From an uncultured Ruminococcus sp. (GTDB lineage Bacteria > Bacillota > Clostridia > Oscillospirales > Acutalibacteraceae), in contig CACXMR010000004.1 of the NCBI GenBank assembly GCA_902768825.1, positions 14,241 to 78,240 on the forward strand: 64,000 bases of DNA, written 5' to 3'. Both the position numbers and the translations under genes were made by a program. The notes beneath the pieces were generated by a model. The model worked only from the letters and a program-made list of their open reading frames with translations, searched no databases and was not told the origin of the DNA. This document shows, in pieces, positions 8,463-29,965 of the stretch. Position 1 is the first letter of the stretch. Each line of letters begins with the position of its first letter.

Positions 8463-8939
8463 TCAAAGAGAACATTCAACGCTGTAGATCTCTCTATCTA
8501 TAACTACAGGTACTCTGAGCATTACTTCGCCCTGCTGATCGTAAGCAACATAGGTAACTGCGTTGAAGCCGTCTTTGTAGTTGAGGAATATTTTTGCTGA
8601 CAGCTCATTATACTTGAAGGCGCCCTGGGGATCATTACCTTTGCTTGCACCGAGATATACCGCAAAGGTGCCGTCCTCGTTGAATACAACACTATGGGCA
8701 AGCCTGAAGGATGTGCCGAACATCAGATAGGGATTCACCTGATTTCCATTTGCGTCAAGAATCCTACTGACATTCCATTTATTGCCGGTAATGAAGCTGA
8801 GGTCGAAGGTATTTACCTTTTCTGTGATCGCTGACGTATCTGCCGGAGCTGCATTTGCTGTAGCTGCTATTGCTGCACCTGCAGTGATTGTTAATGCTGC
8901 GGAAAGAATGAGAGCTGAGAGCTTGAGTGACTTTTTCAT
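8463..8939 (-). CDS. Small secreted protein of unknown function
   Basis: Sec signal MKKSLKLSALILSAALTITAGAAIAATANA. AAGGAG RBS upstream of the ATG at 8939. No family recognised. Confidence 0.6.
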   Translation of the reverse strand: MKKSLKLSALILSAALTITAGAAIAATANAAPADTSAITEKVNTFDLSFITGNKWNVSRILDANGNQVNPYLMFGTSFRLAHSVVFNEDGTFAVYLGASKGNDPQGAFKYNELSAKIFLNYKDGFNAVTYVAYDQQGEVMLRVPVVIDREIYSVECSL

Positions 8940-9206: not shown

Positions 9207-9785
9207 TTATTCTGACCTGACAGCGATGAGCTTTTCCATATAACCATTCAATTCGGCAAGGCTCTTCATGATAAGATCCTTTGACGGAGTGAAATCATTC
9301 CTCACCCACTTACCGATAACAGCTACATAGCCGCTCGACCAGAATGCCGATAAATAATCCAGCTCATTATCATTGATGTCAACATGACATCTCTCAGTCA
9401 GTATCAGGCGAAACACACCCTCTATCATATTGGTGAACTTGAATCTGAGCTCACCGGTACTATGGGGGCTGAATATCATTTTAAAGATTTCAGGATTCTG
9501 CGTGATATAATCAAAAAGCTGGTCCCAGAAGTCTGCCGAAAACCCATCGCTGTATTTAAGTGTCAGCATTCCGATTTCGGTCAGCACTTCCCTTTCGATC
9601 TGCTCGTAAATATCATATACATCGTAGAAATACTTATAGAGTGTTGTTCGGCTGATCTCAGCCTTATCTGCTACCTCCTGAACGGTAATATCCTTTAGCG
9701 CCTTGTTTTCCATGAACTGTGCAAGAGCAAGCTTTATTGATTTTATAGTTTTAAGGGTTTTTCTGCTGAGCTTTTGTTCAGGCAT
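9207..9785 (-). CDS. TetR/AcrR-family transcriptional regulator
   Basis: N-terminal HTH ITVQEVADKAEISRTTLYKYF. The ATG at 9785 has a better RBS spacing (AAAGGTG) than the GTG at 9794. Confidence 0.85.
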   Translation of the reverse strand: MPEQKLSRKTLKTIKSIKLALAQFMENKALKDITVQEVADKAEISRTTLYKYFYDVYDIYEQIEREVLTEIGMLTLKYSDGFSADFWDQLFDYITQNPEIFKMIFSPHSTGELRFKFTNMIEGVFRLILTERCHVDINDNELDYLSAFWSSGYVAVIGKWVRNDFTPSKDLIMKSLAELNGYMEKLIAVRSE

Positions 9786-9848
9786 TTTTTTCACACCTTT
9801 ATATTAGCATAGTCCTATTACCGTACAACACAGATTTTTCAAGATGCT

Positions 9849-12800: not shown

Positions 12801-13184
12801 CTTGATACGATCAAAACCATTGCCGTCATAACGCACAAGACCGCCATAGCTGCCTATCCATATAAATCCTTCACTTGTCTGAGCGATGGCGTTTGCTTCC
12901 GAAGTCGGCAGACCGTTTGTATTATTGTATATTATAGCAGAATACTTGAAGTCATTATTGAAAGGATCCAGGTTTCCGCCCCTGTCATCAATATCAGCAG
13001 TCTTTTGCGGATTTGTGCTGCTCTTATTGTTTCCGCTATTTTCTTCAGGCTCTTTATTTTCTGGAACAACAATCGAAGCTTCGTTCTCGGCATTGACGCT
13101 CAGCGAAAAGCAGGCACTGCTAACAGTCAATAGAGCCGTAAATAATATAATTGACAAAAAATATCTAATATATTTTTTTACCAT
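9849..13184 (-). CDS. Membrane sensor PP2C (SpoIIE/RsbU-type) serine phosphatase with extracytoplasmic beta-propeller (Reg_prop / Y_Y_Y-like) domain
   Basis: N-terminal signal/TM. About 750 aa of repeated propeller-like blades (e.g. GFIWIGSYGGLVRYDG, DRLWIGSTNNGVAMM). One TM helix LWFYIFIIVAGLLLISLFVYLFI. PP2C motifs GGDFYDF, MADVSGKGIPAALFM, LYTDGLPE. Start taken at the ATG at 13184 (GGAG upstream); the track start is 13214. Confidence 0.85.
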   Translation of the reverse strand: MVKKYIRYFLSIILFTALLTVSSACFSLSVNAENEASIVVPENKEPEENSGNNKSSTNPQKTADIDDRGGNLDPFNNDFKYSAIIYNNTNGLPTSEANAIAQTSEGFIWIGSYGGLVRYDGNGFDRIKIDGITGVKSLYTDSQDRLWIGSTNNGVAMMKNGDIRYFGEDDGMVTGAVQAISEDSSGNIYIASKCGLLIIDKDLHVKTIDDDRVKSKNISDVKKGCDGFVYGLNADSNVFTIKDGSIQKYCHSRLNDVVCLLPDPQKPDCVYLSNSDFQTYGRLSEGDTFSDEVVYYTEFLTYIHNMEYIDGQVWLCAGNGVAACELGDLGNIHYLRNIPLTSATAHVMKDYQGNLWFTSSRQGVLKVVPDFFDDIYEKYGMSNDVVNSTCLYDDKLIIATDTGLRCKSLNGSIDDIYLEEIYYEGKPSVIYDSSLTIYDYLDGVRIRCLLCDSHQRLWIATWGKGLYCLEGKKLYQYSNESNKTEYKLSSNYIRDILEKKDGTILAVEYSGVDSIKNDKIIYSYTQKDGINNIALLTAEEGLNNDVFIGSDGNGIYIVDSKGSTQCLGKDSGLTSGAVMRIKKDRTRDIFWIVTGDSIGYMNGDYEITTVTNFPYPNNFDLYQNSKDEMWVLSSDGIYVVPTEQMVKNQKDMTFLHYGIANGLPCVTTANSHSELTDEGDLYICGNTGVTKINIETAFSSSPEIKAVIPYIEADGKRIYPDEEGNFRVSSNVVKLTVYCSVCNYSLSTPKISYRLEGLEQNDTVIDISDLNPFDYTNLSGGEYRFVMKINPPTENDSDIISVTIIKDKAFYEQLWFYIFIIVAGLLLISLFVYLFIHFREKKLKKKHREEMEKKRITTELKTASDIQSDMMPNTFPAFSDRDDFDIYAKMSPAKEVGGDFYDFFLIDDDHLCMIMADVSGKGIPAALFMMSANIILHNFAVSGKTPADILQAANSELYKHSKNSMFVTVWLGIFEFSTGKLTASNAGHEYPVIREPGGKYELYKDKHGFVLGGLNEMCYMDYVIDMKPGSRLFLYTDGLPEASCGERNFFGTERMLDALNENANCSPEQLLDNVRRAVDRFVQHEEQFDDLTMLCFEYRSSKDDSSPKEKS

Positions 13185-13394
13185 AAGACCACACTCCAAG
13201 AATTGTTTTATCAAACAAGCAGGTATTTAACAGGTAATTGGGAATATTTCATATAAAAAACCTTTTTACTTATCATGTTTTATAGTAAGATTATATCATT
13301 AATCGACAAAGCGTGTCAAGATTTTGCTCCAGAAGAACCTCTTGTTAAAACATGGATATCGGAAGCCTGAAAAAACTACTCTTCCATACATAAG

Positions 13395-13501: not shown

Positions 13502-16500
13502 TTATCTGTTCAGATTTTTTTCATCAAAGAAACCCAGCCCCATCAGTGCTTTGATAAAGCGACGGATATAAGCCATATCGGTATTGTTCCAATAGAAGCC
13601 CATACACGAGAGTATCCTTGAAGTATAATCAAATCTTGCGGCAACGGGTATAGTGTTTTTGCCGTTCATGTTTTTGTATGCCAGCATACTTGACAATATC
13701 GCTGCCTTGACAGGATCCTGCTCAGCTTTTTCCAGTGCAGCATCAAATTCGGGTTTATACACGAAATCAATTTTGATCCCCAGCTCCTTCATAGTACGGA
13801 TAATGTCAACAAGCGGAACCGAATGATTATTGATGGCATTGAAAAGGCAGCATTCACCGGGAGTCTGAGCAAGCAGCAGGAATGCCTTTGCGCTTTCGTC
13901 TATGGATCCCATGCGTACAGGATTATTTATCATGTCGTGGGGGAATGCCTTCAGCAGGGCAAAGCTCCTCAGGCGACCCATAAAGTTATTTGTGAGCCAG
14001 TTGATCTGGAACTCACCGTCGCTCTCACGGGGTGCAAGGGTGCCCACTCGGATGACCTTTGCGTCAAGTCCGTTTTCTACCACGTTCTCAAAGACCTCAC
14101 GCTCTGCTAACAGCTTTGAAGAAGTGTACTGGTTTTCAAGTATCTGCCCGAAATATAAAACGTGCTCGTCAAGGAATGGCATAGACTTGCCCGGCTGGGC
14201 TGCAACCGCACCTGAAACTGAGGTGGTTGAGAAGTGGATAAGTCTTGCGCCCTTTTCCAGACAATAGCGGATACAGTTTTTAGCACCGCCCACGTTGATA
14301 TCCTCGATATCTGTGCCGCTGGAGAAATGCTTAACGCTGGCAGCGCAGTTGAATACCGTATCAATCGGCATTGAAAGCAGGGAGCTGAAGCTCTCGTAAT
14401 CTGTTACGTCACCGTCGAATGCTTTGATACGATCCAGCATTCCCTCAAACCTGTCGTCAAAATAATAATACAGCATATTTCTGACACGGCTGAATGCGGT
14501 ATCATAACGCCCTTTACGCACCATGCAATAAACAGTGCCGGTATAGCTCTTCAGGTATTCCGCAAGAACGTGTATTCCCATAAATCCTGTGGCACCGGTC
14601 AGGAGAATATTTCCCAATGGTCGTTTTTCACCATTGACAAAAGAATCAACGCTGTTGGATCTCAGCATCTGATGTATCTTGGTGTAATCATAGCTGTCAA
14701 AGCGGGCAGCCGAGAGCGATACGTTGTCTCCTTCTCCCGTGAATCTGGAAGCAAGCTTTCGTGGTGTAGTGTATTTGAACACATCGCCGTAGGTCAGCTC
14801 GTAGCCCTGTTCATTCGCCTTTATCATTACGCTTGTGACAGCAAGACTGGTGCCGCCGATGGAGAAGAAGTCATCATTTGCACCCACCTTGTCAAGTCCG
14901 ACGATCTCGCCAAACAGCTTGCAGAAGAATTCCTCCGTATCGTTGGCAGGCGGTTCATATTCGCCGCTTTCTACAAGTTCAGGATCAGGCAGTGCCTTTA
15001 CATTGGTCTTGCCATTGGGTGTCACCGGTATATTATCTACCTGCATCATGGCGGCGGGCACCATATAGTGGGTCAGCTTCTGGGCAAGAGCTTCTCTGAG
15101 TTCTGCCAGATCAACCCGCATATCCGCAGTGAACCATGCACAGAGGTTTTCTCGTCCACCTATCCTGCGGACAGCTGCGGCTGCTCGCTTGATGTGAGGC
15201 TGCTGCTCCATCAGACCCTCGATCTCACCCAGTTCTATGCGAAGACCACGAAGCTTGATCTGGCCGTCCATTCTGCCGATAACCACCGCATTGCCCTCTG
15301 CATCCCATTTAGCATAGTCGCCTGAGCGATAGACACGCTGTCCGTTATACTCAATAAAGCGCTGCTTCGTCTGCTCCGGCAGATTACGGTAGCCCCTTGC
15401 AACACCCGGACCTCCGATAAGCAGCTCACCAATCACGCCACGGGGCAGCATATTAAGGTCGGAATCAACTATATATTCACATACATTGAGCAGCGGTCTG
15501 CCTACGGAAATATGATCCGCATTCTGAAGATATGCCATATTACAGGAAATAGTCGTTTCCGTGGGGCCGTAGGTATTGATAACATTTTCTATATGCAATT
15601 CCTTCAGGCGTTTGAGCAGGGTTTCGGAAAATGCCTCACCGCCCGCCAAGACCATTCTGCACTGCTTTAGGGCATCTGCAAAGGGTGCATACTCCATGTA
15701 TTGCTGATAGCGTGAAGGTGTGGCATTCATGGCGTCCACCCCGTTTTCGGTGATCAGCCTTGTAAGCTCCAGAGGATTGTTCATCTGATCCTCATTTGCA
15801 AAGACAACGGTTTTTCCGTTGCAGAGGATACCCAATGTATCCTTAAGTGACAGGTCGAAGGATACGCTGGAAACTGCCAGCATTTTACTGATCCCCTTGC
15901 TCAGAGTATCATACAATATATTTGCCGGGTGGGTAATGCAGTAGTTGCAAATGCCCTCATGCATCAGCATAACTCCCTTAGGCTTTCCTGTTGAACCTGA
16001 GGTGTATATCATATACGCAAGGTCCTGGCCTGTCAGCGGCACATCCGGATTCTCTGTATTGCTGCTGTCAAAAAGAGTATCTATCAGCAGCACCCGTTCA
16101 GCGGGATAATCCGAAGAATGTTCCTCTGTTGTGATAATAAATCTGGCTCCGGAATCCTCCGTGATATGACTAATTCTGTCAGCTGGATATTCAGGGTCAC
16201 AGGGCACAAACGCAGCACCTGCCTTCAGCACACCAAACACTGCTTCAAAGTAGTAGCTTCTGCGAGGCAGCAGCAGCACTATGCTGTCGCCGGGTCTGAC
16301 ACCCTTTTCCATAAGGCTGTGGGCAATACGGTTTGCATCTTTGTTCAGCTCAGAATAAGTAAGTGTCTTGTCGCAGGCGATCAGGGCTGTTTTATCGAAA
16401 GCATCTGCCGCTGTCTTTTCAAAGACTCTGTGGAGCAGCACTGTCTCGACCTCAAGCTGTGCCGAACGCCCCAGCTTCACCAGAGCCTGCTTTTCTTCGT

Positions 16501-19500
16501 CGGTAATCAGCGACAAAGCACATACAACAGTGTCACTTTTATCTATCATCCTGTCGGTCATGGTTTTGACAGAATCAGCAAGAGTCTGCATATACTGCTT
16601 TGAATAAAGAGCATCGTTATACAGCACCCTGACGGCATATTCTCCGCCTCTCTCCACGATCGAAAATACTATCCTGAACTTTGGCGCTTCAAAGCTTAAC
16701 CTCACCTGCTTATAAGCATTTCCGCCGATCGTGCCTCCTTCAGTAATGACACCAAGCTGGCATTCATACATTATTTCTGTCTTGTATCCGTATTTTGCGG
16801 CGATCTCAGCAAAGGGATAGATCTCATTTTTAATGCTTCCCCTCATGACGCTGTTTGAAGCCTTGACAAGCTCCAATACATTCATGCTCTTGTCAAATTC
16901 CATTGCAAGGGGCAGGGTATGTACAAACATTCCGAGAGTGTTTCTTGTCTTAATGCTTTCCCGCCCCGATGAAATAGTGGACAGATAGACATTCTTTGTT
17001 CCGGCATAGCGTGAAGCAGTATAGAACACTGCCGCAAGGAAAAATGCAGATGCCTGCACGTTATTCTGACGACAAAAAGCATCAACCGCCTGCTTTGACA
17101 CAGTGCAGGAAACCTCACCGATCACGCCGTTTTCTTCATTTCCTGATCTGTCGAAAGGAATCCCTGTAGGTGCCTCATAGCTTTGGAACAGCCTGTCAAA
17201 ATACTTTTCAGCTTCCGAATATTCATCCGTCTGCTTGAGTTCCTCCCCTTCCTGGGAATAATCAAAGTAGGTGTAGCTTTCCCCTGACAACTCCTTGCCT
17301 GAATAAGCCGCATCAATATCCCTGAGCAGTATGCCTCTCGACAAACCATCAAATATCAGGTGATGAACATCAAAGAACAGATAAGTCTTTCCACCGGAGT
17401 TGACAACTGACGATCTGAAAAGCGGACCCTTGTGAAGATCAAAGGGACGGATAAAGCTGTTTTTGAACTGCTCAAGCTCCTCAGAATCCATTGTAAGGAC
17501 ATCCACCTTTACAGGGGCATCATCGTTTCTGACCTGCACAAGCCTGCCGTCACACAGCTCGATATGGGTGTTGAGATAGCTGTGAGCGACAACGGCCGAT
17601 TTTACTGCATCCGCAAGTCTCTGGCCATCAAGCTGTTCAAATTGCAGACACATGGGCAGATTATACACTATGTCAGCCTCGTTCTTCATTGCATCGTAGT
17701 AAACGGCAATCTGTACATCAGATAGCGGAACCTTGTCTGACTTAGGCTTTTCTTCAGTGATATCCGCCTGCATCTCCGATTGTTGTGAAAATCCCTTTTG
17801 CATCCAGCTTTTAAAGATAATGTTTTCTATATCGATTATGCTTGCGCCGTCAAGGAGCATAGAGGCGGATACCTCGGCGTTAAACTTGTCAGCGAGAGTG
17901 GCAACGAGACCTATAGCGCTGATGCTTGTCAGTCCGTAATTAATCAGAGGCTCTGCAGGGTGAATATCAATATCCCCCAAAAGACGTTTTGCAACCCCTG
18001 CGATCTCTTCCTCAAAAAGGGTCAGCGGACGAGCCTGCCGCTCATTATCGTTGGTATTGGTTGTTTTGACAGGCTCCGGCAGTGCACGCTTGTTGACCTT
18101 CTGGTTCTGGTTCAGAGGAATACGGTCGATCTGCATTGTCACAGCGGGAACCATGTAAGCAGGCTTGTCTTTCCTGATAAACTCGCCCAGTGCGTCTACA
18201 TCTACAGGCTCATCTGCTACCACGTAAGCCGCAATAAACTTTCCGCCGGTCTTTTTGTCGAATGCCTGTACGGTGGCGTCCTTGATACCCGGGAACTTAC
18301 GAATAACACTCTCAACCTCAGACAGCTCAATACGGAAGCCGCGCACCTTGACCTGACCGTCGTTTCTGCCTATGAAATCAGCCGTGCCATCCGGCATGAT
18401 ACGCACTATATCACCTGTCCTGTATGCGTGGGTATAGCCCGGTTCATCTGAGAACGGATTGCGTATGAACACCTCGGCATTTTTCTCCGGGCGGTTAAGA
18501 TATCCTCTTGCTACCTGGTGACCTGCTACAATCAGCTCGCCGGGCATACCGAATGGCAGGCGGTTGCGGTTCTTATCCACGATATACTGCTTCATGTTGT
18601 AAAGCGGTTTACCTATGGGCACACGGGTATAAAGCCTGTCAACTGTAAACATGTGGGTAAAGAATGATTCCGTGGGACCGTAGCCGTTGTATAGCGTAAA
18701 ACCCCGAGGCGGCTCCACAGGGACTAATTTCTCACCGGCAACAATCAGATGATGGGGATAAGCAGCATCCGGGAACAGGTCGGCGTACTGTCTGCCTACC
18801 TGCGTTGTCATAAAGGTATGTGTAATGCCGTATTTGTGGAAATAGTCCTTTATTGCGATAAGATCAAGACGAATGCTCTCATCAATAATGTGGAGCTGAC
18901 CGCCGCAGAAAAGCACCGGGTACATATCCAGCATATGACAGTCAAAACCGTAGCTGGCGTAAGCGGATGAGCGGCTGTTTTCGTCTATATCATAATTTTT
19001 GATGTACCACTCGCAGAAACAGCGCAGATTATGATGTTCAAGCATGACACCCTTTGGAACGCCTGTTGATCCGGAGGTATAAAGCATGATGAACAGATCA
19101 CTGGGCTCCGGGTTTTCGGTTATCCTCTCGGCATCAGGAAGAGATGGTATTTCATCAGTGTAGAGCACCGGTCCCTTATAGTCAGGGAGCTTGTCCATCA
19201 GGTTCCTGTCAGCGATCAGATATTTGGCGTCTGCATCTTTTATCATAAATTCAAGACGTTCGGAAGGATAGCTGGGGTCAAGAGGCTGATATCCCGCACC
19301 TGACTTGAGAACACCGATAGAGGCTATGGGCATATATTCACAGCGGGGTATCATGACAGAAACCGCCTGATTCTTCCCCACGCCCTTGGCTTTTAGGAAT
19401 GCTGCGATATTCTCAGTAATGCGGTCTACATCTCTATAGGTATAAGTATGGTCAAGATAGACAACGGCTATATTATCAGGTGTTTTAGCTGCCTGACGGC

Positions 19501-22500
19501 GGAACGGAGTCACCATATCCGTGATCTCATAGTCGTGTTCAAAGTGGTTTACAGCTTCAAGACGGGCTTCGGTTTCATCATCCACAAGCTGAACCTTGTC
19601 AGTACTATCCTTGACAGCAAACTCTAACAGTGCCCGCTCATAGGTCAGGATCATCTCCCTGATAAAATTCTCTGTATAGAGATCGGAAGCGTAGGAGCAA
19701 TGGTAAGTCAGCCTGTTGCCATCAGGATAAATGAGGACTTCTATCTTTGCCTTGTCTTCCTCAAAGGTCAATGGAATGCTCTCAGCCTTTGCTCCGCAGA
19801 AATCAAACCTGCTGCCGTCTGTCAGGGTACTCTGATATACAAACAGCACATCTGCGGTCACGCCCAGATCATGTCTAATTTCCGCAAAGGAATATACGTC
19901 ATAGTGCAGGCTGTCGGCAAGCTGACTGCCAATGTCTTTGATGTAGCTCTCGGTGTCAGTATTATCAAGTCTGCAATGTACAGGATAAGTGCGCACAAAC
20001 ATGGAGATACTGTCGTTAAAACGAGGATCGTTCCTGCCGTTATTAACAACCGTAAAGACTGAATCCTCTCTGTCACAGTATTTTCCCAACAGCCAGCCAA
20101 AAACAGAGGTACAGAAAGCGTTTTCACTGACATGGTGCTTACCGCAATAGTCCCTGATTACGGCAGGGATGTTCTCTCTGCCGGTAAGGTTCAGCATCCT
20201 GCTTCCCTTCTGCGCCCCGGCGGAAACCACGTTGTTAATCGGAACGCAATCACTTTCTACGCCGTCCAAAAGCCTTGTGTAATATTCCTTAGAAGCATTA
20301 TAGTGTTCGCTCGCCCTGAGCTTTTCCTCTACAAGTGCCGCCTCATATCCGCTGTATTTTTCGGGGGTGAGTGTTTTTCCGTTATATGCAGCGGTGATAT
20401 CACGCAGGAAAATATTCTTGGAGCCGCCGTCAAATACGATGTGGTGAATGTCATAGAAGAAATAGTTTTCCTTATTGGTCCTGATAAGCTTGAAACGTAG
20501 CAGCCTTTCCTTTTGAATATCAAAGGGAACAACCAGATCATTCTGTATTTCATCGATAGAGTCACAGCGGATCTCTTCTATATCCTCTTCTTTAAATGTT
20601 TTGTCCCTTCTACGCTGACGGATTTCGCCGTTTTTGTTGATAAACATTTCAGTCATCATGTAGGGGTGCGCATTGACCGCTGCGGTAATAGCTGTTTTTA
20701 GCTTCGGCAATTCTATGGCGTCATCCAGCTTCAACAGACCCGGAACATTATAAACAGGAGTGTCAGGGTGCGACAGCGTCTCAAAGAAAATGCCCTCCTG
20801 GGTCTTGGTTATTGCGTATTCATCATAGATTTCAAAGTCCTCGCTGCCCTTATCCGCAAGAACCTTAATGAAGGCTTCAAGCTTTTTTATTGTGTCGTTT
20901 TCTCTCAGGTCACGGATCTGTACGTTTACACTGAAAGCATCGCTCAGCTTTATACAGAAGCCCACGCTGTTGAGGGAAGTCAGACCTGCCGAATAAAGCT
21001 CGGTGTCAATGCCGAAATCGCTGCTGCCAAGAACCTCTGCCGCAATATCGAATATACGCTGCTGCACTTCATTCTGCGGGGGAATTATGGTTTTATCAGC
21101 TGCAGCAGGCTCAGGAAGTCGTTTTGTATCAGTCTTGCCGTTAGCTGTCACCGGCATCTCATCCATCTGAAGGTAAGCTGTAGGAACCATGTAATGGGTA
21201 AGGTGCTTTTTCAGCTCGTCGCGGAGATCGTCGATTTCGATCTTCTTATCGGCAGTAAAGTAAGCGCACAGATTGTCCTGTCCGCCTATCTTGCGGATGA
21301 TAACCGACGCCTTTTTGATATGGGGCTGGGCTGCAATCAGCTCTTCGATTTCTGAAAGCTCTATTCTCAGTCCACGAAGCTTAACCTGACTGTCAAGTCT
21401 GCCTAAAATGAACACGTTTCCGTCCTTGTCGTATTTAGCATAGTCGCCGGTGCGATACATTCTCTGTCCGTTGTACTCCACAAAGGACTCTGCGGTTTTT
21501 TCGGGTAGGTTGCGGTAACCCTTGGCAACTCCTACGCCGCCTACATACAGTTCGCCGATCACGCCCCAGGCCGCAAGGTCGCCGTATCTGTCAACAATAT
21601 ATTCGCTGTAGTTAAGAAGCGGTCTTCCTATAGTAACATAATCCGCATCCGTCAGGTCAGCTGCATTGCATGAAACGGTTATCTCTGTGGGGCCATAGGT
21701 ATTGACGATCTTTATCTCATCGGAGCAGGCTTTGATAGCGTCCCTCAGTGACATGGGATAACCCTCACCGCCGGACATGACAAGCTTACACCTTGCAAGC
21801 TCTTTTCTGAAGGGCTCATATTCCATATATTGCTGCAATCTTGACGGTGTGGCATTCATGCAGTCAACACTGTATTTCTCCATCAGGTCGGCAAGCGCTC
21901 TCGGGTCGTTCATTTCCTCCTCGGAAGCGAAAACCAGCGTTTTGCCGTTGCAAAGGGCTGCCGTGTGCTCCTTGAAGGACATATCAAAGGATACTGTTGT
22001 CACGGAAAGATATGTCTCAACATGATTTTTGATATAATTCATGTGGATATTTGCAGGGTGCGGCATCAGATAGTTGCATATTCCGATGTGACTCAGCATA
22101 ACTCCCTTGGGCTTGCCCGTTGAGCCGGAGGTGTAGATCATGTAGGCAAGCTCATCGCCGGTCATTTCTATTTCGGGGGCTGAGGTATCGCTGCCCTCAA
22201 GAATATCCGATACGTTTATGGCGTTGTATGCTGCGTAGTCTGCAAGCTTTTCCTGGGTAGTTATTATGCACACAGCTCCGCTGTCCTCAATAATGGAGCG
22301 TATACGGTCAGCCGGATACTGCGGATCGCAGGGAATAAATGACGCACCGGCCTTGTTGACACCGAAGAGACAGCTGAAGAATGTGCTTTCTCTTGGGAGA
22401 AGAAGGACAACACTGTCACCCTTGCGAATGCCCTTATCAATCAGGTTGTTTGCAACGATGTCAGAACTCTTGCTGAGCTCATTATAGGTCATTGTTTTGT

Positions 22501-25500
22501 CCTTGGCTATCAGGGCGATTCTATCCGGATTTTCGTTTGCGCTTTGCTCAAAAAGCCTGTGCAGAAGCTTTATGGGAATATCGGCCTTTGCAGTGGATGA
22601 AAACTCATTAACAGTCTTTAGCTGCAGAGCAGGCAGTGCAAGGGCATCCCTGACTGTAGCAGACTGAGGTTCACAGAGTCTCTCAGCGGTACTAAGGAAT
22701 TGCTCGATAAAGCCTTCGATCACGGTATCTTCAAACAATTGGCTGGAATACTGAAGATAGCAGTCAATGCCCTGCTCCTTAACCTGCATGACCAGATTAA
22801 TGTCCTTGCCGGAGGTTTGCAAACGATATGATGATTTTATTGCAACTCCGTTTCCGCTCATATCATTCTGTATGGGAATATAGTTAATACCCACATCGGA
22901 CAGCAGACTGCGTGAAGCGTCCCTTTCTTTGGCAAACGCCGCCACCAGACGGTCAAAGGGGCAGGTATTCTCCTTGATATACTCAGAAACAGCTTCCTTT
23001 ACTTCACTGATGTAGTCGTCAGATCTTTTGGATCGAACCGGTCTGAGGCGCAATAGCGCAGTATTTACAAACATACCGATGGTATTGCTTGTCTTTGCGT
23101 CACGGGTATTAACAGGTACACTGACCACTATATCCTCTGACGCAGTATATTTTGCAGCCGTCATGGAATATGCCGATAGCAGCAGATCAAAGGGCGTCAC
23201 TGACTTTTGGCGGGCTGTCTGTTTTATGGCTTGCAGAAGGTCGTTTCCTATGACAAAGAAACGGTCGGTATCTGATTCGGGATGCACCTTGGGACGTGGA
23301 GCTTTGGTGGTAAGCTCTGTGACCGGAACACCGTCCGCAAAGAGTGCCTTGTATTTTTCAAAGCCCTTCTGATAGGAGGCTTCGTGATTTACCTGAGAAG
23401 CACCGCTCAGGTCAAAGCTGTCAAGGACAGGAGCATTGCCTGTAAGCCTTGCAAAAAGCTCTTTTCCAAACAGTATATCGCTGCCGCCGTCAAACATAAT
23501 GTGATGATAAAACAGGACAAGCAGGCATTGTTTTGTGTCCGTGTAGATAACAGCACTGGCAGGAATGCCAGCGGAAAGATCGTATGTCTTGTCCTGAGCT
23601 TCCGCCATAGAACGGGCTGCCTGAATATCGCTGATCTGACAAACGGTGATTTCGGGTATTTCGTCAACCAATACTCTAAGAAGCCTGCCGTCCTTTTCAC
23701 GATAGACCGAATGGAAGGCTTCGTGGCTGCGGAAAATATCTTCCACTGCATTTTTTATCTGCTCCGCTCCTGAGCCGTTGACCTCATAATAGCCTATCAG
23801 GTTATACATCCTCGATTCAGGATTCAGCTTCTGCTCAAGATACATACCTGTCTCAAAGGTGCTCAGGGGGTATTCATTCAGCTGGGCTTTCTCTGACGAT
23901 TCCTGTGTTACTGCCATTTCAAGCATTGCTGAGATCCTTTTGGGAGTTTTTCCGGAGAAGATGATCTCCGAAGAAAGTGACGCTATGCCGCATTCCGCCT
24001 GGAGCGTCATTGCCAGCAGTGAATCGCCGCCCAAAGAGAAGAAATTATCGTTAACTCCTACCTGACCGCATTTCAGTATTTTTTCAAAAGCGGAGCAAAG
24101 AACCCTTTCATACTCCGTTTCAGGCGCTGCATATTCCTCCTTGAAGGATGCAGCCATCGGCGGCTTTATCGCCTTGCGGTCGATCTTGCCGTTGGTGTTA
24201 AGCGGAAAAGCTTCCACCTCCACAAAGAATCGGGGGATCATATAATCCGGCAGCTTCCGGCGGAGTGATGCTTCGATGACTTCGGATGATATGGACATAT
24301 CGTTTTTTACTTTATAGTATGCGGCAAGATAGGTAAGTCCGTATTCGTTCTCAAACGCCTTGACAACGGCTGCTTCAACCTCCGGATGATCCGTAACCAT
24401 CCGGACTTCTATCTCTCCGGTCTCGACACGCTGACCGTTGATCTTCACCATCCAATCCTTGCGGTTGACATAGACGATATTCCCGTCCGGCAGCATCCTG
24501 CCTATATCGTTAGTGTGATAAAGTGTCAGACCGTCCGCAGGATCAGAGAAGGGATCAGCAGCAAATGCTTCCTTTGTTTGCTTTTCCAGCTTCCAATATC
24601 CCTTTGAAAAGCTTCCGGCAAGGCAAATCTCTCCCTCCTCGCCCATCGGGACCTGCTTGCCGCTGTCATCAAGGAGATATACGGATACTCCATCGGCAGG
24701 CCTTCCTATGGGTGTATTGTCATAGGCTTTATCAACATTGAAGGTGAGAGAACAGAGCGCCTCGGATGAACCGTATGTATTGATTATCCTGTATTCGTTG
24801 GAATAAAAGTCGGATAATCTCTCGCCCACCGTCTGAACGAACCGCAGGGATGAATTGTGGATATCCAGACGCTTGAGCATATTGGGATTGATATACAAAG
24901 CGGTAATTCTGTAATCTATTATGGCTTTCCTGACATAGGAAAGCTCCTTGCGCTCCTGATCGTTGAGTATCAGGAGATGCGCTCCCGAAAGAATGGTGTC
25001 ATACACCTCTGCAACGGACAAAGCAAAGCTAAGGCTCACAAGCCCGAGTGTTCTGTCGCTGTCTGTCATTCCGTTGATGCAGGTGTTCTTTTGCACTGCC
25101 TCAAATAAAGATCGGTGTGTATGCACAACACCCTTGGGATTCCCGGTGGAGCCTGAGGTGTAGATCAACAGAGAAATATCCTCGTCAGTAGTCTCAGCGT
25201 CCTCAGTTGCCGGCTCTGCACTCATGGCATCACGCATAAAGGCTTCATCTATCACTATCTGTGCCTGACAGTCATTTTTTATATAATCAATACGTTCCTG
25301 AGGATACTCCTGCAGAAGCGGCACATAACCGCAGCCGGCTCTTAGCACACCGATCTCTGCAGCTATATAATCAATACCCCGTGGCAGAATAACCGGAACA
25401 AGACTTCCTCTCTCCGTGCCCTTTGACCTCAGTAACGCAGCAATCCTTCCGCTGAGGGTCATCAGCTCTCCGCCTGTCAGACTGCGCCCGGTAAAGCTCT

Positions 25501-25567
25501 CTGTAAGCAATACTTTATCCCGGTACCGTTCAAATATGGTTTTAAACCTTTTTGTTAATCCGCTCAT
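13502..25567 (-). CDS. Four-module non-ribosomal peptide synthetase, A-T-C-A-T-C-A-T-C-A-T-R (terminal thioester reductase)
   Basis: Uninterrupted 4021-aa ORF. A-domain cores LIYTSGSTGNPKG, MIYTSGSTGKPKG, MLYTSGSTGVPKG, MIYTSGSTGKPKG. Carrier motifs GGDS, GLTS, GLTS, GGTS. C-domain motifs HHIMFDGGS, HHIVFDGGS, HHLIFDGLS. C-terminal ~369 aa is an SDR reductase (LLTGATGFMG, YTSSK; about nt 13505-14611). AAGGAG RBS. Confidence 0.95.
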   Translation of the reverse strand: MSGLTKRFKTIFERYRDKVLLTESFTGRSLTGGELMTLSGRIAALLRSKGTERGSLVPVILPRGIDYIAAEIGVLRAGCGYVPLLQEYPQERIDYIKNDCQAQIVIDEAFMRDAMSAEPATEDAETTDEDISLLIYTSGSTGNPKGVVHTHRSLFEAVQKNTCINGMTDSDRTLGLVSLSFALSVAEVYDTILSGAHLLILNDQERKELSYVRKAIIDYRITALYINPNMLKRLDIHNSSLRFVQTVGERLSDFYSNEYRIINTYGSSEALCSLTFNVDKAYDNTPIGRPADGVSVYLLDDSGKQVPMGEEGEICLAGSFSKGYWKLEKQTKEAFAADPFSDPADGLTLYHTNDIGRMLPDGNIVYVNRKDWMVKINGQRVETGEIEVRMVTDHPEVEAAVVKAFENEYGLTYLAAYYKVKNDMSISSEVIEASLRRKLPDYMIPRFFVEVEAFPLNTNGKIDRKAIKPPMAASFKEEYAAPETEYERVLCSAFEKILKCGQVGVNDNFFSLGGDSLLAMTLQAECGIASLSSEIIFSGKTPKRISAMLEMAVTQESSEKAQLNEYPLSTFETGMYLEQKLNPESRMYNLIGYYEVNGSGAEQIKNAVEDIFRSHEAFHSVYREKDGRLLRVLVDEIPEITVCQISDIQAARSMAEAQDKTYDLSAGIPASAVIYTDTKQCLLVLFYHHIMFDGGSDILFGKELFARLTGNAPVLDSFDLSGASQVNHEASYQKGFEKYKALFADGVPVTELTTKAPRPKVHPESDTDRFFVIGNDLLQAIKQTARQKSVTPFDLLLSAYSMTAAKYTASEDIVVSVPVNTRDAKTSNTIGMFVNTALLRLRPVRSKRSDDYISEVKEAVSEYIKENTCPFDRLVAAFAKERDASRSLLSDVGINYIPIQNDMSGNGVAIKSSYRLQTSGKDINLVMQVKEQGIDCYLQYSSQLFEDTVIEGFIEQFLSTAERLCEPQSATVRDALALPALQLKTVNEFSSTAKADIPIKLLHRLFEQSANENPDRIALIAKDKTMTYNELSKSSDIVANNLIDKGIRKGDSVVLLLPRESTFFSCLFGVNKAGASFIPCDPQYPADRIRSIIEDSGAVCIITTQEKLADYAAYNAINVSDILEGSDTSAPEIEMTGDELAYMIYTSGSTGKPKGVMLSHIGICNYLMPHPANIHMNYIKNHVETYLSVTTVSFDMSFKEHTAALCNGKTLVFASEEEMNDPRALADLMEKYSVDCMNATPSRLQQYMEYEPFRKELARCKLVMSGGEGYPMSLRDAIKACSDEIKIVNTYGPTEITVSCNAADLTDADYVTIGRPLLNYSEYIVDRYGDLAAWGVIGELYVGGVGVAKGYRNLPEKTAESFVEYNGQRMYRTGDYAKYDKDGNVFILGRLDSQVKLRGLRIELSEIEELIAAQPHIKKASVIIRKIGGQDNLCAYFTADKKIEIDDLRDELKKHLTHYMVPTAYLQMDEMPVTANGKTDTKRLPEPAAADKTIIPPQNEVQQRIFDIAAEVLGSSDFGIDTELYSAGLTSLNSVGFCIKLSDAFSVNVQIRDLRENDTIKKLEAFIKVLADKGSEDFEIYDEYAITKTQEGIFFETLSHPDTPVYNVPGLLKLDDAIELPKLKTAITAAVNAHPYMMTEMFINKNGEIRQRRRDKTFKEEDIEEIRCDSIDEIQNDLVVPFDIQKERLLRFKLIRTNKENYFFYDIHHIVFDGGSKNIFLRDITAAYNGKTLTPEKYSGYEAALVEEKLRASEHYNASKEYYTRLLDGVESDCVPINNVVSAGAQKGSRMLNLTGRENIPAVIRDYCGKHHVSENAFCTSVFGWLLGKYCDREDSVFTVVNNGRNDPRFNDSISMFVRTYPVHCRLDNTDTESYIKDIGSQLADSLHYDVYSFAEIRHDLGVTADVLFVYQSTLTDGSRFDFCGAKAESIPLTFEEDKAKIEVLIYPDGNRLTYHCSYASDLYTENFIREMILTYERALLEFAVKDSTDKVQLVDDETEARLEAVNHFEHDYEITDMVTPFRRQAAKTPDNIAVVYLDHTYTYRDVDRITENIAAFLKAKGVGKNQAVSVMIPRCEYMPIASIGVLKSGAGYQPLDPSYPSERLEFMIKDADAKYLIADRNLMDKLPDYKGPVLYTDEIPSLPDAERITENPEPSDLFIMLYTSGSTGVPKGVMLEHHNLRCFCEWYIKNYDIDENSRSSAYASYGFDCHMLDMYPVLFCGGQLHIIDESIRLDLIAIKDYFHKYGITHTFMTTQVGRQYADLFPDAAYPHHLIVAGEKLVPVEPPRGFTLYNGYGPTESFFTHMFTVDRLYTRVPIGKPLYNMKQYIVDKNRNRLPFGMPGELIVAGHQVARGYLNRPEKNAEVFIRNPFSDEPGYTHAYRTGDIVRIMPDGTADFIGRNDGQVKVRGFRIELSEVESVIRKFPGIKDATVQAFDKKTGGKFIAAYVVADEPVDVDALGEFIRKDKPAYMVPAVTMQIDRIPLNQNQKVNKRALPEPVKTTNTNDNERQARPLTLFEEEIAGVAKRLLGDIDIHPAEPLINYGLTSISAIGLVATLADKFNAEVSASMLLDGASIIDIENIIFKSWMQKGFSQQSEMQADITEEKPKSDKVPLSDVQIAVYYDAMKNEADIVYNLPMCLQFEQLDGQRLADAVKSAVVAHSYLNTHIELCDGRLVQVRNDDAPVKVDVLTMDSEELEQFKNSFIRPFDLHKGPLFRSSVVNSGGKTYLFFDVHHLIFDGLSRGILLRDIDAAYSGKELSGESYTYFDYSQEGEELKQTDEYSEAEKYFDRLFQSYEAPTGIPFDRSGNEENGVIGEVSCTVSKQAVDAFCRQNNVQASAFFLAAVFYTASRYAGTKNVYLSTISSGRESIKTRNTLGMFVHTLPLAMEFDKSMNVLELVKASNSVMRGSIKNEIYPFAEIAAKYGYKTEIMYECQLGVITEGGTIGGNAYKQVRLSFEAPKFRIVFSIVERGGEYAVRVLYNDALYSKQYMQTLADSVKTMTDRMIDKSDTVVCALSLITDEEKQALVKLGRSAQLEVETVLLHRVFEKTAADAFDKTALIACDKTLTYSELNKDANRIAHSLMEKGVRPGDSIVLLLPRRSYYFEAVFGVLKAGAAFVPCDPEYPADRISHITEDSGARFIITTEEHSSDYPAERVLLIDTLFDSSNTENPDVPLTGQDLAYMIYTSGSTGKPKGVMLMHEGICNYCITHPANILYDTLSKGISKMLAVSSVSFDLSLKDTLGILCNGKTVVFANEDQMNNPLELTRLITENGVDAMNATPSRYQQYMEYAPFADALKQCRMVLAGGEAFSETLLKRLKELHIENVINTYGPTETTISCNMAYLQNADHISVGRPLLNVCEYIVDSDLNMLPRGVIGELLIGGPGVARGYRNLPEQTKQRFIEYNGQRVYRSGDYAKWDAEGNAVVIGRMDGQIKLRGLRIELGEIEGLMEQQPHIKRAAAAVRRIGGRENLCAWFTADMRVDLAELREALAQKLTHYMVPAAMMQVDNIPVTPNGKTNVKALPDPELVESGEYEPPANDTEEFFCKLFGEIVGLDKVGANDDFFSIGGTSLAVTSVMIKANEQGYELTYGDVFKYTTPRKLASRFTGEGDNVSLSAARFDSYDYTKIHQMLRSNSVDSFVNGEKRPLGNILLTGATGFMGIHVLAEYLKSYTGTVYCMVRKGRYDTAFSRVRNMLYYYFDDRFEGMLDRIKAFDGDVTDYESFSSLLSMPIDTVFNCAASVKHFSSGTDIEDINVGGAKNCIRYCLEKGARLIHFSTTSVSGAVAAQPGKSMPFLDEHVLYFGQILENQYTSSKLLAEREVFENVVENGLDAKVIRVGTLAPRESDGEFQINWLTNNFMGRLRSFALLKAFPHDMINNPVRMGSIDESAKAFLLLAQTPGECCLFNAINNHSVPLVDIIRTMKELGIKIDFVYKPEFDAALEKAEQDPVKAAILSSMLAYKNMNGKNTIPVAARFDYTSRILSCMGFYWNNTDMAYIRRFIKALMGLGFFDEKNLNR

Positions 25568-25789
25568 AACATTTCTCCTTTCATATCGTACAAATGGGAC
25601 TGTCAGTTTCTTATACTAATACGAAAAAACTCATAATTCTAATTAATCATACCAGAAATTTTAATAATTGTCTATTATTTTTTGGCAATTTCTTAACTAA
25701 ACAGTGGACAACGACTGTTTTTTTTGATATCATCTTATCAAGGCTTTCACCCTGAGATCGGAATATTCTTTACAGAAAAGGTGGACAAC

Positions 25790-27532
25790 ATGGAGCGAAG
25801 CGGAAGACTGATCAATCATAAATATAACGAATATTTCTTTACAACGCTGGCAATGAGCGGATGTGCTTCCATTGCCTCGATCGTGGACAGGATCATGGTC
25901 GGGCACCTTTTGACTGCCAATGACCTGAATGCTACCAACCTTATAGGTCCGCTGATCTACATACTTAATATGATTTTCGGATTATTCATCTATGGCGGAA
26001 ATACGCTGGCTGTGACCTATAAGGGAAAACGAGATCAAAAAACAGCTAACAAATGCTTCACAATTTCAATTATTGTCGGATCCGGCTTTATGGCCGTTTT
26101 TGCGATAGTAGGCCTGATTTTGCAGGCTCCTCTTTCCTATTGGCTCTGCTCAGGTAAGGAGGAATTATTAAAACCTGTTTCAGATTACCTTATCCCTGTA
26201 TTGTTCCTGGGAATCCCTATGATATTGCTTAACGGCACGTCTGCTTTCGTCAGAGTAGACGGTCTGCGAAAGCTTGCCATTGCAATGCCAATTGTTTCCA
26301 ACGCTATAAACCTACTGCTGGATTACGTTTTTATGGGGGTATTAAAGCTTGGCATTGCCGGAGCCGGCTGGGCAACAAACATCGGTTTTACTGCGGCACT
26401 GGTTCTGCTGATACCCTATTTCCGCTCACAAAAGCGCACTGTGTTCTTTACTAAGGTCGGGTTAAAGGATATCCGTCTGATGTTCAACGCCTTTCATCTG
26501 GGGCTTGCAACGGCAATGATGTATCTTTGTATGTTCATCAAAACAAAATTCCTCAATACGATAGTTCTTGGTGTGCTGGGTGCAGTAGGCGGTCAGATCC
26601 TTGTGGTGTGCGCATCTGTAACCAGTGTAGCAAATATCTTCTTTACGGGAACTGCTCAGACAATGCTGCCTATCAACGGCGCACTGTACGGTGCAAAGGA
26701 TTATAAAGGCATCCGTCAGCTTTTCAAACGTGCGATGATCGTGATGGAGATCATCTGTGTTGCCATAATGGTTGTGTTTATGCTGTTTCCCATTCAGACC
26801 GGTGCGGTGTTTAATGTCACAAGTCCCGAAGCTCAGGAGCTTTTGCCCGGAGCAATTTTCCTGTTCTCACTTTGTGTTCCTCCCACGGGTATGCTGTTCA
26901 TCCTCCGCTCTCATTATCAGTCAACCGGTCACCGTAACGCAGCAACGGTGCTGACCATTCTGGAAGGAACGGTTTTCTTTATTCCCGTGCTCTGGATACT
27001 GTCTCTGATTGATCCCAATCTTGTCTGGCTGTGCCACGTTATCTCTATCCTATTGGCAATTGTATCCGTTTTGCTTGTAATGGGAATAATCGCAAAACGA
27101 AAAGGAAGGTCTGCTTTTTTGCTGCTGCCTAAGCAGGAGGACGGAGATATTATTGATTTCAGCATCGAAAACAACGTGGACTCGGCTGTAGAAGCGTCTC
27201 ACAAGGTAGTCGATTACTGCAAGGAAAGAGGCGTTGAGGCTGATGTTGCAAACAAAATCGGTGTTTCTGTTGAGGAGCTGTGCGTAAATACAGCACAGTA
27301 CGCCGCAAGCTCTAAATCTGATATGGTGGATATTTTCGTGAATATCACGCCCGAAGCGGTTATTCTTAAGGTGCGGGATAACGGAAAGATATTCAATCCC
27401 ACGGAGTATATTAATAATTCCGGCGAGATGATAACCGGACTAAAACTGATAAGAAGCATTAGCTCAAAAGTAGAATATAACCGTGTTATCGGCTTTAACA
27501 CCACAATCGTCACGATTAACAGAAGGAAATAA
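25790..27532 (+). CDS. MATE-family efflux transporter fused to a C-terminal SpoIIAB/RsbW-like HATPase (anti-sigma-factor kinase-like) domain
   Basis: About 450 aa of MATE-like polytopic region, then ~130 aa (nt ~27143-27529) with N-box-like VSVEELCVNTAQYA, G1-like LKVRDNGKIF and G2-like EMITGLKLI. AAGGTGG RBS upstream of the ATG at 25790. Confidence 0.75.
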   Translation: MERSGRLINHKYNEYFFTTLAMSGCASIASIVDRIMVGHLLTANDLNATNLIGPLIYILNMIFGLFIYGGNTLAVTYKGKRDQKTANKCFTISIIVGSGFMAVFAIVGLILQAPLSYWLCSGKEELLKPVSDYLIPVLFLGIPMILLNGTSAFVRVDGLRKLAIAMPIVSNAINLLLDYVFMGVLKLGIAGAGWATNIGFTAALVLLIPYFRSQKRTVFFTKVGLKDIRLMFNAFHLGLATAMMYLCMFIKTKFLNTIVLGVLGAVGGQILVVCASVTSVANIFFTGTAQTMLPINGALYGAKDYKGIRQLFKRAMIVMEIICVAIMVVFMLFPIQTGAVFNVTSPEAQELLPGAIFLFSLCVPPTGMLFILRSHYQSTGHRNAATVLTILEGTVFFIPVLWILSLIDPNLVWLCHVISILLAIVSVLLVMGIIAKRKGRSAFLLLPKQEDGDIIDFSIENNVDSAVEASHKVVDYCKERGVEADVANKIGVSVEELCVNTAQYAASSKSDMVDIFVNITPEAVILKVRDNGKIFNPTEYINNSGEMITGLKLIRSISSKVEYNRVIGFNTTIVTINRRK

Positions 27533-27783
27533 TACTGTTAAAAGCATGGTACAATTCCCGATCTATACTATTGTTAAACAAGTCTGTCAGGAAAAAATCA
27601 ATTGAAGAGAGATGTTGCAAATCATAGGTGACCAGATCAAAAAAGATCGTTCAAAAAAAGGAATGTCCCAGCCGGTCGGAGCTGACAATATCATTTTCAA
27701 TTCCGGTCTCACCGATCAGGAGATCGCAGGCGGAGCAATATCCTATCAGACATCAGATATTATCTTTGATGAAAAGGCCAATG

Positions 27784-29257: not shown

Positions 29258-29258
29258 A

Positions 29259-29948: not shown

Positions 29949-29965
29949 TTCTTCATCCCCGATCC

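Follow-up and report, generated by a model that had tools for sequence, protein, structure and literature searches.

Partner switching is understood mainly as a form of sigma factor control. In Bacillus, SpoIIAB, SpoIIAA and SpoIIE form one such module and RsbW, RsbV and RsbU another, each with a kinase, a STAS protein and a PP2C phosphatase. Partner switches can also have an output other than a sigma factor, examples being SypE-SypA of Vibrio fischeri, BtrU/V/W of Bordetella and HsbR/HsbA of Pseudomonas; in SypE, RsbW-like kinase and PP2C phosphatase are parts of a single polypeptide. MATE pumps are generally viewed as constitutive, substrate-driven antiporters, and to our knowledge they have not been reported to possess a dedicated domain for their regulation. 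Nonribosomal peptide synthetases (NRPSs) of the gut that end in a reductase domain are known to make protease-inhibiting peptide aldehydes. Here we analyze a gene that brings these elements together. It lies in a 64,000-nucleotide stretch of DNA from an uncultured Ruminococcus sp. (GenBank assembly GCA_902768825.1, contig CACXMR010000004.1, positions 14,241 to 78,240 of the forward strand), referred to as the window throughout, and encodes a MATE transporter fused at its C-terminus to a SpoIIAB/RsbW-like HATPase_c_2 domain. We propose, with a probability of roughly one half, that the protein exports a reductase-released peptide and that, through its kinase-like tail, the pump serves as the output of a partner switch without a sigma factor.

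The locus resembles the SpoIIAB-SpoIIAA-SpoIIE and RsbW-RsbV-RsbU modules in several respects. The tail has their kinase fold (template modeling (TM) scores of 0.75-0.81), the Glu and Asn of the N-box and the Asp-x-Gly of the G1 box, a STAS protein carries a serine at the position of SpoIIAA Ser58, and a PP2C/SpoIIE phosphatase is encoded in the cluster. Unlike in these modules, the kinase-like domain extends a MATE protein of 12 transmembrane helices at its C-terminus, no sigma factor gene is linked to it, its ATP lid is shorter, its G2 box is half degenerate and the cluster is dedicated to an NRPS. A sequence-only reading of this DNA had envisaged a partner-switching-gated efflux pump; overall, our analysis partly supports that interpretation.

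A single gene encodes a MATE transporter with a C-terminal HATPase_c_2 domain

The fusion gene lies in a single unbroken reading frame on the plus strand that extends from a TTG codon at 25724 to position 27532 and contains an internal ATG at 25790. A Shine-Dalgarno sequence, AAAGGTGG, is placed 6 nt 5' of this ATG, which is the likely translation start and gives a protein of 580 amino acids (aa). The gene, its parts and the region preceding it are:

25790..27532, plus strand: MATE-HATPase_c_2 fusion gene, 580 aa and stop codon (reading frame, ribosome binding site, Pfam, identical proteins, AlphaFold2 model)
25790..27109, plus strand: 12-helix MATE body of the DinF subfamily, residues 1 to ~440, with D33 at 25886-25888 and D178 at 26321-26323
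27110..27145, plus strand: short basic linker (…AKRKGRSAFLLLPKQEDG), residues ~441-452 (AlphaFold2 secondary structure and sequence)
27146..27520, plus strand: SpoIIAB/RsbW-like HATPase_c_2 (GHKL) domain, residues 453-577, 125 aa (Pfam, AlphaFold2, Foldseek, profile)
25568..25789, no strand: divergent intergenic region between the NRPS and MATE-HATPase genes, 222 bp, with back-to-back promoter-like sites

Across the whole protein, Pfam detects MatE (E = 1.3e-14) and HATPase_c_2 (PF13581) at residues 460-572. The full-length AlphaFold2 model, with a predicted local distance difference test (pLDDT) score of 87.3 and a predicted TM score (pTM) of 0.85, consists of 12 long helices, a linker and then an alpha/beta domain. 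Reading frame, Pfam matches and intergenic gap confirm that a MATE body with a C-terminal HATPase domain is transcribed divergently from the NRPS, as the sequence-only reading had stated. The residue range it gave for the domain, 474-602, corresponds to a real domain with a numbering that starts at the TTG codon; counted from the ATG, the domain spans residues 453-577. Promoter-like sites identified by a consensus scan of the 222-bp gap are located at 25705-25733 on the plus strand and at 25674-25646 on the minus strand.

The same fusion is encoded by many related genomes. Five rumen contigs, assembled independently, encode an identical protein next to the same divergent NRPS, and roughly 90 clusters at 90% identity combine MatE with HATPase_c_2, reaching 34% identity, with two more clusters at ~22%. 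A scan of species representatives of the Genome Taxonomy Database (GTDB) found 95 relatives, almost all of them in rumen and gut Clostridia (Ruminococcus, Lachnospiraceae, Oscillospiraceae, Acutalibacteraceae). Among the carriers are Ruminococcus sp. JL13D9, whose genome is complete, and the isolates FB2012, FC2018 and Pseudobutyrivibrio ACV-2. Searching 1.84 billion representative sequences (50% identity) with a profile of the tail yielded 1,722 matches at E <= 1e-10. The best 150 of these, to 1e-22, are mostly 575-600 aa long with the domain at ~455-585, and the rest of the 150 are for the most part shorter, with some whose length leaves room for the domain alone. It is conceivable in principle that assembly, a frameshift or gene calling merged a MATE gene with a small RsbW-like gene. 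The uninterrupted frame, the independent contigs, the ~90 clusters, the 95 GTDB species loci and most of the top 150 representatives leave this explanation a negligible probability, nothing speaks in its favor, and we reject it: the fusion is real, with the same architecture in relatives, in a complete genome and in cultured isolates.

The single public name that we met for a member of this family is 'ATP-binding protein' (NCBI). One member of 937 aa (P0199) combines MatE, HATPase_c_2 and a Transglycosylase domain similar to those of penicillin-binding proteins, representing either a true fusion or a gene-calling merge. Two MATE-HATPase/NRPS clusters per genome are present in RUG475, RUG135, RUG11818, RGIG3564, RUG10988 and RGIG4846. 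The two clusters of RUG475 (L012 and L019) are ~15 kb apart on contig ONNU01000158.1, each with its own large NRPS.

The C-terminal domain is of the SpoIIAB/RsbW type

The isolated tail matches PF13581 with 49.9 bits (E = 4e-13), above the gathering score of 27.4. NCBIfam returns weak matches of the tail to the RsbW and RsbA models, below threshold, and no specific model for the protein. An AlphaFold2 model of the tail, made on a 32-sequence family alignment, has a mean pLDDT of 92.1 and a pTM of 0.87. When this model was compared to the Protein Data Bank (PDB) with Foldseek, the best 18 matches were all anti-sigma kinases that bind STAS proteins, namely SpoIIAB, RsbW or UsfX (E = 2.6e-8 to 7.7e-6, TM scores of 0.67-0.81 on query length). 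They include SpoIIAB (1til, 1l0o and 1th8; E = 2.6e-8, TM score 0.81) and, among the top matches, RsbW-RsbV complexes (6m36, 6m37) and Mycobacterium tuberculosis UsfX (8ih8, 8jzt); the RsbW domain of Rv1364c is the next match after the 18. A profile of the tail likewise finds B. subtilis RsbW (6m36) as its best match among PDB sequences (E = 1.5e-4), while a single-sequence PDB search with the tail gave Hsp90 and VraS matches only, all sub-threshold. Both profile (E = 4e-13) and predicted fold (TM scores of 0.75-0.81 for the SpoIIAB/RsbW type) bear out the earlier designation of the domain as SpoIIAB/RsbW-like. We also considered a histidine kinase identity and rejected it, as Pfam detects no HisKA/DHp domain and the catalytic and ATP-binding (CA) domains of histidine kinases match the tail fold less well, with TM scores of 0.5-0.6.

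Three motifs of the nucleotide-binding site can be located in the domain:

27272..27304, plus strand: N-box EELCVNTAQYA, with E496 and N500 invariant
27368..27400, plus strand: G1 box KVRDNGKIFNP, with R529 and D530 invariant and G532 in 52/54
27401..27457, plus strand: shortened ATP lid and half-degenerate G2 box (TEYINNSGEMITGLKLIRS), with G545 and G550 conserved and the canonical GGLG changed to ITGL

Conservation was scored over 54 family members that are 20-84% identical to the protein of the window. E496, N500, D514, R529, D530, G550 and N570 are invariant in all 54 tails, and two glycines are nearly so (G532 in 52, G545 in 51). The N-box residues E496 and N500, whose presence had already been noticed, line up with 'SEACTNA' of RsbW in a profile alignment. 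In kinases of this type the N-box Glu and Asn provide catalytic base and Mg2+ ligand, and the Asp-x-Gly of the G1 box contacts adenine. The second glycine of the G1 box is indeed missing, as the sequence-only reading had observed, yet B. subtilis RsbW, which is a bona fide kinase, does without it as well (DEGDSF). The pattern of conserved residues makes nucleotide binding by the tail look to be under constraint.

The transporter body is a divergent DinF-type MATE protein

The N-terminal body matches Pfam MatE (PF01554) in two stretches with 54.7 bits (gathering score 24.9, E = 1.3e-14). Its score against the NCBIfam model TIGR00797 (matE) is 94.7 bits and does not reach the cutoff of 147.4, marking it as a divergent member of the family. 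The closest PDB sequences are those of DinF-BH (5c6o, E = 1.8e-16) and PfMATE, and Foldseek aligns the full-length model with PfMATE, VcmN and DinF at target TM scores of 0.84-0.90, with ClbM (4z3n) also among the matches. D33 lines up with D40 of DinF-BH (replaced by Asn in the variant 5c6n) and D178 with D184; both aspartates are invariant in 54/54 family sequences. We take these aspartates of transmembrane helices 1 and 5 to be proton-coupling and substrate-site residues. By these criteria the transporter half looks functional.

In the AlphaFold2 model, helix 12 stops at ~438 and the first strand of the C-terminal domain starts at 453, leaving a linker of about 12-14 residues whose positive charges would suit the cytoplasmic side of the membrane. 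MATE proteins usually have an N-in/C-in topology. Given this topology and the basic linker, the tail is likely cytoplasmic and would be kept near the cytoplasmic face of the transporter.

STAS, phosphatase and NRPS genes are linked to the fusion

In the window, genes for the NRPS, a PP2C phosphatase, a TetR-family regulator, a secreted protein and a STAS protein form a co-directional series on the minus strand, divergent from the MATE-HATPase gene. The three with a proposed role are:

13502..25567, minus strand: four-module NRPS of the architecture A-T-(C-A-T)x3-R (A, adenylation; T, thiolation; C, condensation; R, reductase), 4021 aa, with a terminal thioester reductase (Pfam)
9849..13214, minus strand: transmembrane sensor PP2C phosphatase, 1121 aa (Pfam SpoIIE, Reg_prop and Y_Y_Y; hydropathy)
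7997..8293, minus strand: single-domain STAS protein, 98 aa (Pfam STAS, E = 5.2e-16), with Ser54 at 8132-8134

Pfam identifies four AMP-binding and three Condensation domains as well as PP-binding domains in the NRPS, with NAD_binding_4 at residues 3656-3859. The phosphatase begins with a transmembrane segment (residues 16-34), followed by an extracytoplasmic Reg_prop/Y_Y_Y region of ~780 aa, a second transmembrane segment (819-837) and a cytoplasmic SpoIIE/PP2C domain (917-1108; Pfam E = 6.7e-49); no kinase domain is found in it by Pfam. In the PDB the STAS protein matches SpoIIAA and RsbV, and in the HMMER alignment its Ser54 falls on SpoIIAA Ser58, which is Ala in 1tid. Ser54 is invariant in five cluster-linked STAS proteins and is predicted from these alignments to be the phospho-acceptor. 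Both proteins are located where the sequence-only reading had placed them, across the NRPS.

Hidden Markov models (HMMs) of our own for STAS, the tail, the full-length fusion, PP2C and the NRPS were run on all open reading frames of the window and of 99 loci. Within the 64-kb window, the MATE tail is the only HATPase_c_2 domain. Because the window contains a PP2C phosphatase and a STAS protein and no other HATPase_c_2 domain, the tail is the only local candidate kinase. The window represents the minimal triad of sensor-PP2C, STAS protein and MATE-kinase.

The sensor of the phosphatase, a Reg_prop/Y_Y_Y beta-propeller region between two transmembrane segments, is an unusual input for a PP2C protein; such sensors are typical of Bacteroides hybrid two-component systems. 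A full-length relative of this sensor-PP2C, 47% identical, is present in L093.

Of the 95 GTDB relatives, 80 were retained as genome loci, and subsets of 71, 54 (at least 4 kb of downstream sequence) and 38 loci (ample flanks) were drawn from them. The NRPS gene abuts the MATE-HATPase gene in 64 of 71 loci by automatic count and in ~68 of 71 if overlaps of reading-frame starts are allowed. Well-flanked loci contain a STAS gene in 26 of 38 cases and a PP2C gene in 23 of 38. The gene immediately downstream of the fusion encodes a PP2C protein in 29 of 54 loci and a standalone HATPase_c_2 protein of 140-150 aa in another 5. Pfam-annotated contexts of six relatives with 40-51% identity (P0058, 42%) show a reductase-terminated NRPS directly upstream in all of them and, in several, the order STAS, NRPS and MATE-HATPase followed by PP2C-HATPase_c_2 or a second STAS gene. 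JL13D9 exemplifies the canonical order, with the NRPS (A-T-C-A-T-R, 1977 aa) followed by MATE-HATPase, PP2C-HATPase_c_2 (600 aa), a CapA-like gene and STAS.

The linkage is also found in rearranged form. The fusion is divergent in the window, L074 and L083 have their PP2C-HATPase and STAS genes upstream of it on the other strand, and an opposite-strand arrangement is also present in L090. A MATE-HATPase fusion with 22% identity (P0091) is located beside a 98-aa STAS protein and a 5TM-LytS-SpoIIE-HATPase_c_2 gene. The link between MATE-HATPase, STAS, PP2C and NRPS genes is conserved over roughly 90 loci and withstands changes in gene order. In one sub-clade a conserved CapA/PGA_cap-like gene of the metallophosphatase family (396 aa; L054:13551-14741) lies between PP2C-HATPase_c_2 and STAS, accounting for 25 of the 80 loci.

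These linkage data could also be explained if the fusion were a transport-coupled sensor. The MATE body would then sense or carry the peptide and control, via the fused domain, the state of the STAS protein, while free STAS would exert feedback on biosynthesis through some other target, for example the NRPS, a regulator encoded far away or the PP2C-HATPase protein. In many loci a gap of just 10-70 nt separates the upstream STAS gene from the NRPS start, an ordinary MATE that could be the real exporter is also encoded in the clusters of L054 (complete genome) and L086, and the fused body is divergent, as its low TIGR00797 score shows. However, the PP2C partners carry sensor modules of their own (Reg_prop/Y_Y_Y with two transmembrane segments in the window, 5TM-LytS in L090 and a faint HAMP match in L005), so that the module already has an input. 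A second MATE is found in just 2 of 80 loci, the invariance of D33 and D178 is expected of a working transporter, and no conserved downstream effector gene is visible. We consider such a sensor unlikely.

Across the loci examined, the cluster has no conserved gene for a sigma factor or any other transcription factor. No sigma factor gene is present at 1-37 kb of the window and none is among the Pfam-annotated genes of 10 loci. Sigma70-family probes matched in 3 of ~100 loci at unrelated positions, and these matches serve as a positive control for the probes. The previous statement that the cluster has no sigma factor holds for 1-37 kb of the window, and because no such regulator is conserved, the transporter (or the NRPS) is the only local output. 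This bears on the idea that the tail is a membrane-tethered anti-sigma or anti-X factor that holds a distal sigma factor or other protein until STAS frees it for transcription of the NRPS operon, the MATE body being mainly an anchor. The nearest structural relatives of the tail, SpoIIAB, RsbW and UsfX, are all anti-sigma factors, and a sigma factor need not be encoded nearby. Yet the few sigma70-family genes never occupy a conserved position, the annotated genes contain none, and a transporter of 12 transmembrane helices with invariant coupling residues would be an extravagant anchor. We regard a role as membrane-bound anti-sigma factor as highly improbable.

A second, canonical kinase accompanies the fusion in most relatives

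Most relatives encode a second, canonical HATPase_c_2 domain directly downstream of the fusion, either fused to PP2C or standalone. In addition, some family members of 750-790 aa consist of MatE and two HATPase_c_2 domains. In P0128 and P0179 the first of these is a short-lid tail of the MATE type while the second is canonical (DNGTPYDPL…GGLG…YEY..G.NVLTL) and shares its motifs with the standalone and PP2C-fused downstream kinases. Another tandem protein (P0187) has lost the N-box Asn from its second domain. SpoIIAB and RsbW work as homodimers, and taken together with the tandem MATE-HATPase-HATPase fusions this suggests, by analogy, that the MATE tail and a canonical kinase domain form a heterodimer.

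A model for a partner switch acting on an exporter

In the model that we propose, the MATE-HATPase protein would be a dedicated exporter of the NRPS product, probably a peptide aldehyde. The sensor PP2C (9849-13214) would respond to an extracellular cue and dephosphorylate the STAS protein at Ser54. Unphosphorylated STAS would then bind the kinase-like domain, which is tethered about 12-14 residues from transmembrane helix 12, and binding would shift the domain on the cytoplasmic face of the transporter and switch H+-coupled export on or off. In the window the tail would re-phosphorylate STAS with ATP, resetting the switch. In most relatives phosphorylation of STAS would fall to the paired canonical kinase, probably acting as a heterodimer with the MATE tail. 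What the data show are the domain identities and fold, the conserved residues, the STAS serine and the gene linkage; from these, STAS-controlled gating is inferred as the reading of the locus with the best support.

Several observations weigh against this model. The tail was aligned with PP2C-fused and standalone HATPase_c_2 domains from the same clusters and with SpoIIAB and RsbW sequences. Measured against SpoIIAB, RsbW and the canonical kinases encoded in the clusters, its ATP lid lacks 8-13 residues, and its G2 box, correctly described before as partly degenerate, reads (I/V)TGL and keeps the second glycine (G550) alone, where the other aligned domains have GGLG or SGMG. Because of the short lid and the degenerate G2 box, catalysis by the tail may be weak or lost, and its competence as a kinase is uncertain. 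The tail may be the receiver or a heterodimer partner instead of the kinase, given that most relatives encode a second canonical HATPase_c_2 domain downstream. Neither STAS nor PP2C is found within 10 kb in 12 of the 38 well-flanked loci; a large NRPS occupies the flank in most of these 12, which is not so in L041, L080 and L082. Within the window's own sub-clade, the STAS/PP2C link is observed in the window alone, and a metagenome scan with the window's sensor-PP2C returned 8 loci, none of them informative on the NRPS. Lastly, the conserved synteny partly reflects common descent and not independent events.

The short lid and half-degenerate G2 box, set against the canonical kinases of the same clusters, would also fit a non-catalytic role for the tail. 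As a pseudokinase it could recruit the canonical kinase and STAS to the membrane beside the exporter by heterodimerising, and regulation of the pump, if any, would be indirect. The canonical HATPase_c_2 domain that follows immediately downstream in 34 of 54 loci and the existence of tandem fusions would agree with such docking. Against it, the invariance of E496, N500 and D530 and the near-invariance of G532 among sequences as little as 20% identical would be difficult to account for if the tail bound no nucleotide, and the window encodes a PP2C phosphatase and a phosphorylatable STAS protein with no other kinase domain in 64 kb. RsbW itself, moreover, lacks the second G1 glycine. Overall, a purely docking tail seems rather improbable.

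An extended version of the switchable exporter, which we put forward more tentatively than its core, would make this the first secondary-active transporter directly switched by STAS, a serine kinase and PP2C, with the tail as one half of a heterodimer with the canonical kinase-phosphatase and with release of the reactive aldehyde by abundant rumen and gut Clostridia upon an extracellular cue to the PP2C, within seconds and without transcription. If true, transporters would constitute a new output class for partner switching and MATE pumps would gain their first dedicated post-translational regulator. Gating of export would explain the presence of STAS and PP2C genes without a transcription factor in these clusters, could provide a handle for activating silent NRPS products of the rumen and gut, and would offer a compact membrane system for examining the coupling between a GHKL/STAS switch and an alternating-access transporter. 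A large family, probably made up of hundreds of clusters at 50% identity, links MATE transport with partner switching; its carriers comprise 95 or more rumen and gut Clostridia genomes at species level, cultured strains among them, and since the window version is minimal (one sensor-PP2C, one STAS protein, one MATE-kinase) it represents the cleanest test case.

Other genes of the window

Two further genes belong to the minus-strand series:

9207..9794, minus strand: TetR-family regulator (Pfam TetR_C_8 / TetR_N)
8463..8939, minus strand: secreted protein with signal peptide, 158 aa, no Pfam family

Neither has a homologue in the 80 genome loci, and both were rejected as conserved members of the cluster. 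LuxS (autoinducer-2 synthase) was rejected on similar grounds, being present in 1 of 80 genome loci although it adjoins the cluster in the window (7344-7868, plus strand) and in L004, a 41%-identical relative (2469-2993, with a second fragment at 14767-15147); its adjacency is probably coincidence. Large surface proteins with InlB B-repeats or Listeria-Bacteroides repeats are encoded beside the cluster in the window (4607-7027, minus strand) and in L007 (1-2018 and 11938-14157) and probably represent unrelated cell-surface gene content.

On the 3' side of the MATE-HATPase gene, an open reading frame of 64 aa (27612-27806, plus strand) is followed in the directly downstream region by one for a Ser-rich protein of 255 aa with an N-terminal signal-like segment and a C-terminal transmembrane segment (27954-28721, plus strand). 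Both are also called as genes in the same-species contigs L091 and L092, and Pfam gives no convincing family for either product. Further on, a queuosine precursor operon (28760-31681, minus strand) encodes QueF, QueC, GTP cyclohydrolase I, a radical-SAM QueE-like protein and a PTPS/QueD-like protein. Rfam at the gathering threshold detects no RNA family in the whole 64-kb window, the preQ1 riboswitch included.

Comparison with known systems

Among described partner switches, SypE offers a parallel to the proteins that neighbor the fusion, with PP2C-HATPase_c_2 proteins located downstream of it in 29 of 54 loci. SypE-SypA and the other sigma-free switches have a soluble or unknown target, whereas in the present case a transporter contains a further kinase-like domain in its own chain, which points to the output. 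By analogy, the system would work like the SpoIIAB/RsbW modules and, to a greater degree, like sigma-free switches such as SypE-SypA.

As a transporter, the fusion resembles DinF-BH and PfMATE in its 12-transmembrane fold and in the aspartates of transmembrane helices 1 (D33, equivalent to D40) and 5 (D178, equivalent to D184). Like ClbM of the colibactin cluster, it is encoded next to a biosynthetic gene. No described MATE protein is known to carry a cytoplasmic regulatory GHKL domain, and the fusion scores low on curated MATE models. The literature that we searched contains no description of a MATE-HATPase_c_2 fusion or of a MATE regulated by partner switching, in agreement with the sequence-only reading, which knew of none.

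A similar gene neighborhood has been reported from an archaeal methanogen. In Methanobrevibacter ruminantium M1, genes for two serine phosphatases, an anti-sigma antagonist and MatE surround the NRPS gene mru0068, and functions in sensing, regulation of NRPS expression and export were proposed for mru0066-0071; the legend of Figure S8 includes a thioester reductase domain for the NRPS (Leahy et al., 2010; PMC2812497). By this published description, mru0066-0071 comprises the same gene set as the loci analyzed here. There MatE is taken for an ordinary exporter, the partner-switch genes are assigned to transcriptional control and no fusion is mentioned. The neighborhood was thus already noted in 2010, while the fusion and the idea of gating were not. 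The clusters mru0066-0071 and mru0513-0516 were reported as probably of bacterial origin (PMC2812497). The presence of this NRPS, phosphatase, STAS and MatE set in an archaeon implies that the module as a whole was transferred horizontally between rumen organisms.

With respect to biosynthesis, a family of gut Clostridia NRPSs with A-T-C-A-T-R architecture is reported to make dipeptide aldehydes and pyrazinones (Guo et al. 2017, as cited in PMC8210680). The canonical relatives of the window cluster resemble this family in their dimodular, reductase-terminated NRPS of ~1977 aa and in their occurrence in gut and rumen Clostridia, whereas the window NRPS has four modules. The work of Guo et al. 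2017 (Cell) reportedly showed that gut Clostridia NRPSs yield dipeptide aldehydes and is not known to have covered export or regulation.

Physical coupling of a partner-switch-type domain to a membrane transporter is also seen in the C-terminal STAS domains of SulP/SLC26 proteins and in MlaB-MlaFE. In those systems STAS is the attached component and no GHKL kinase is involved, whereas here the kinase-like domain is attached and STAS is free. A partner switch with a kinase-like domain embedded in the transporter has probably not been described before.

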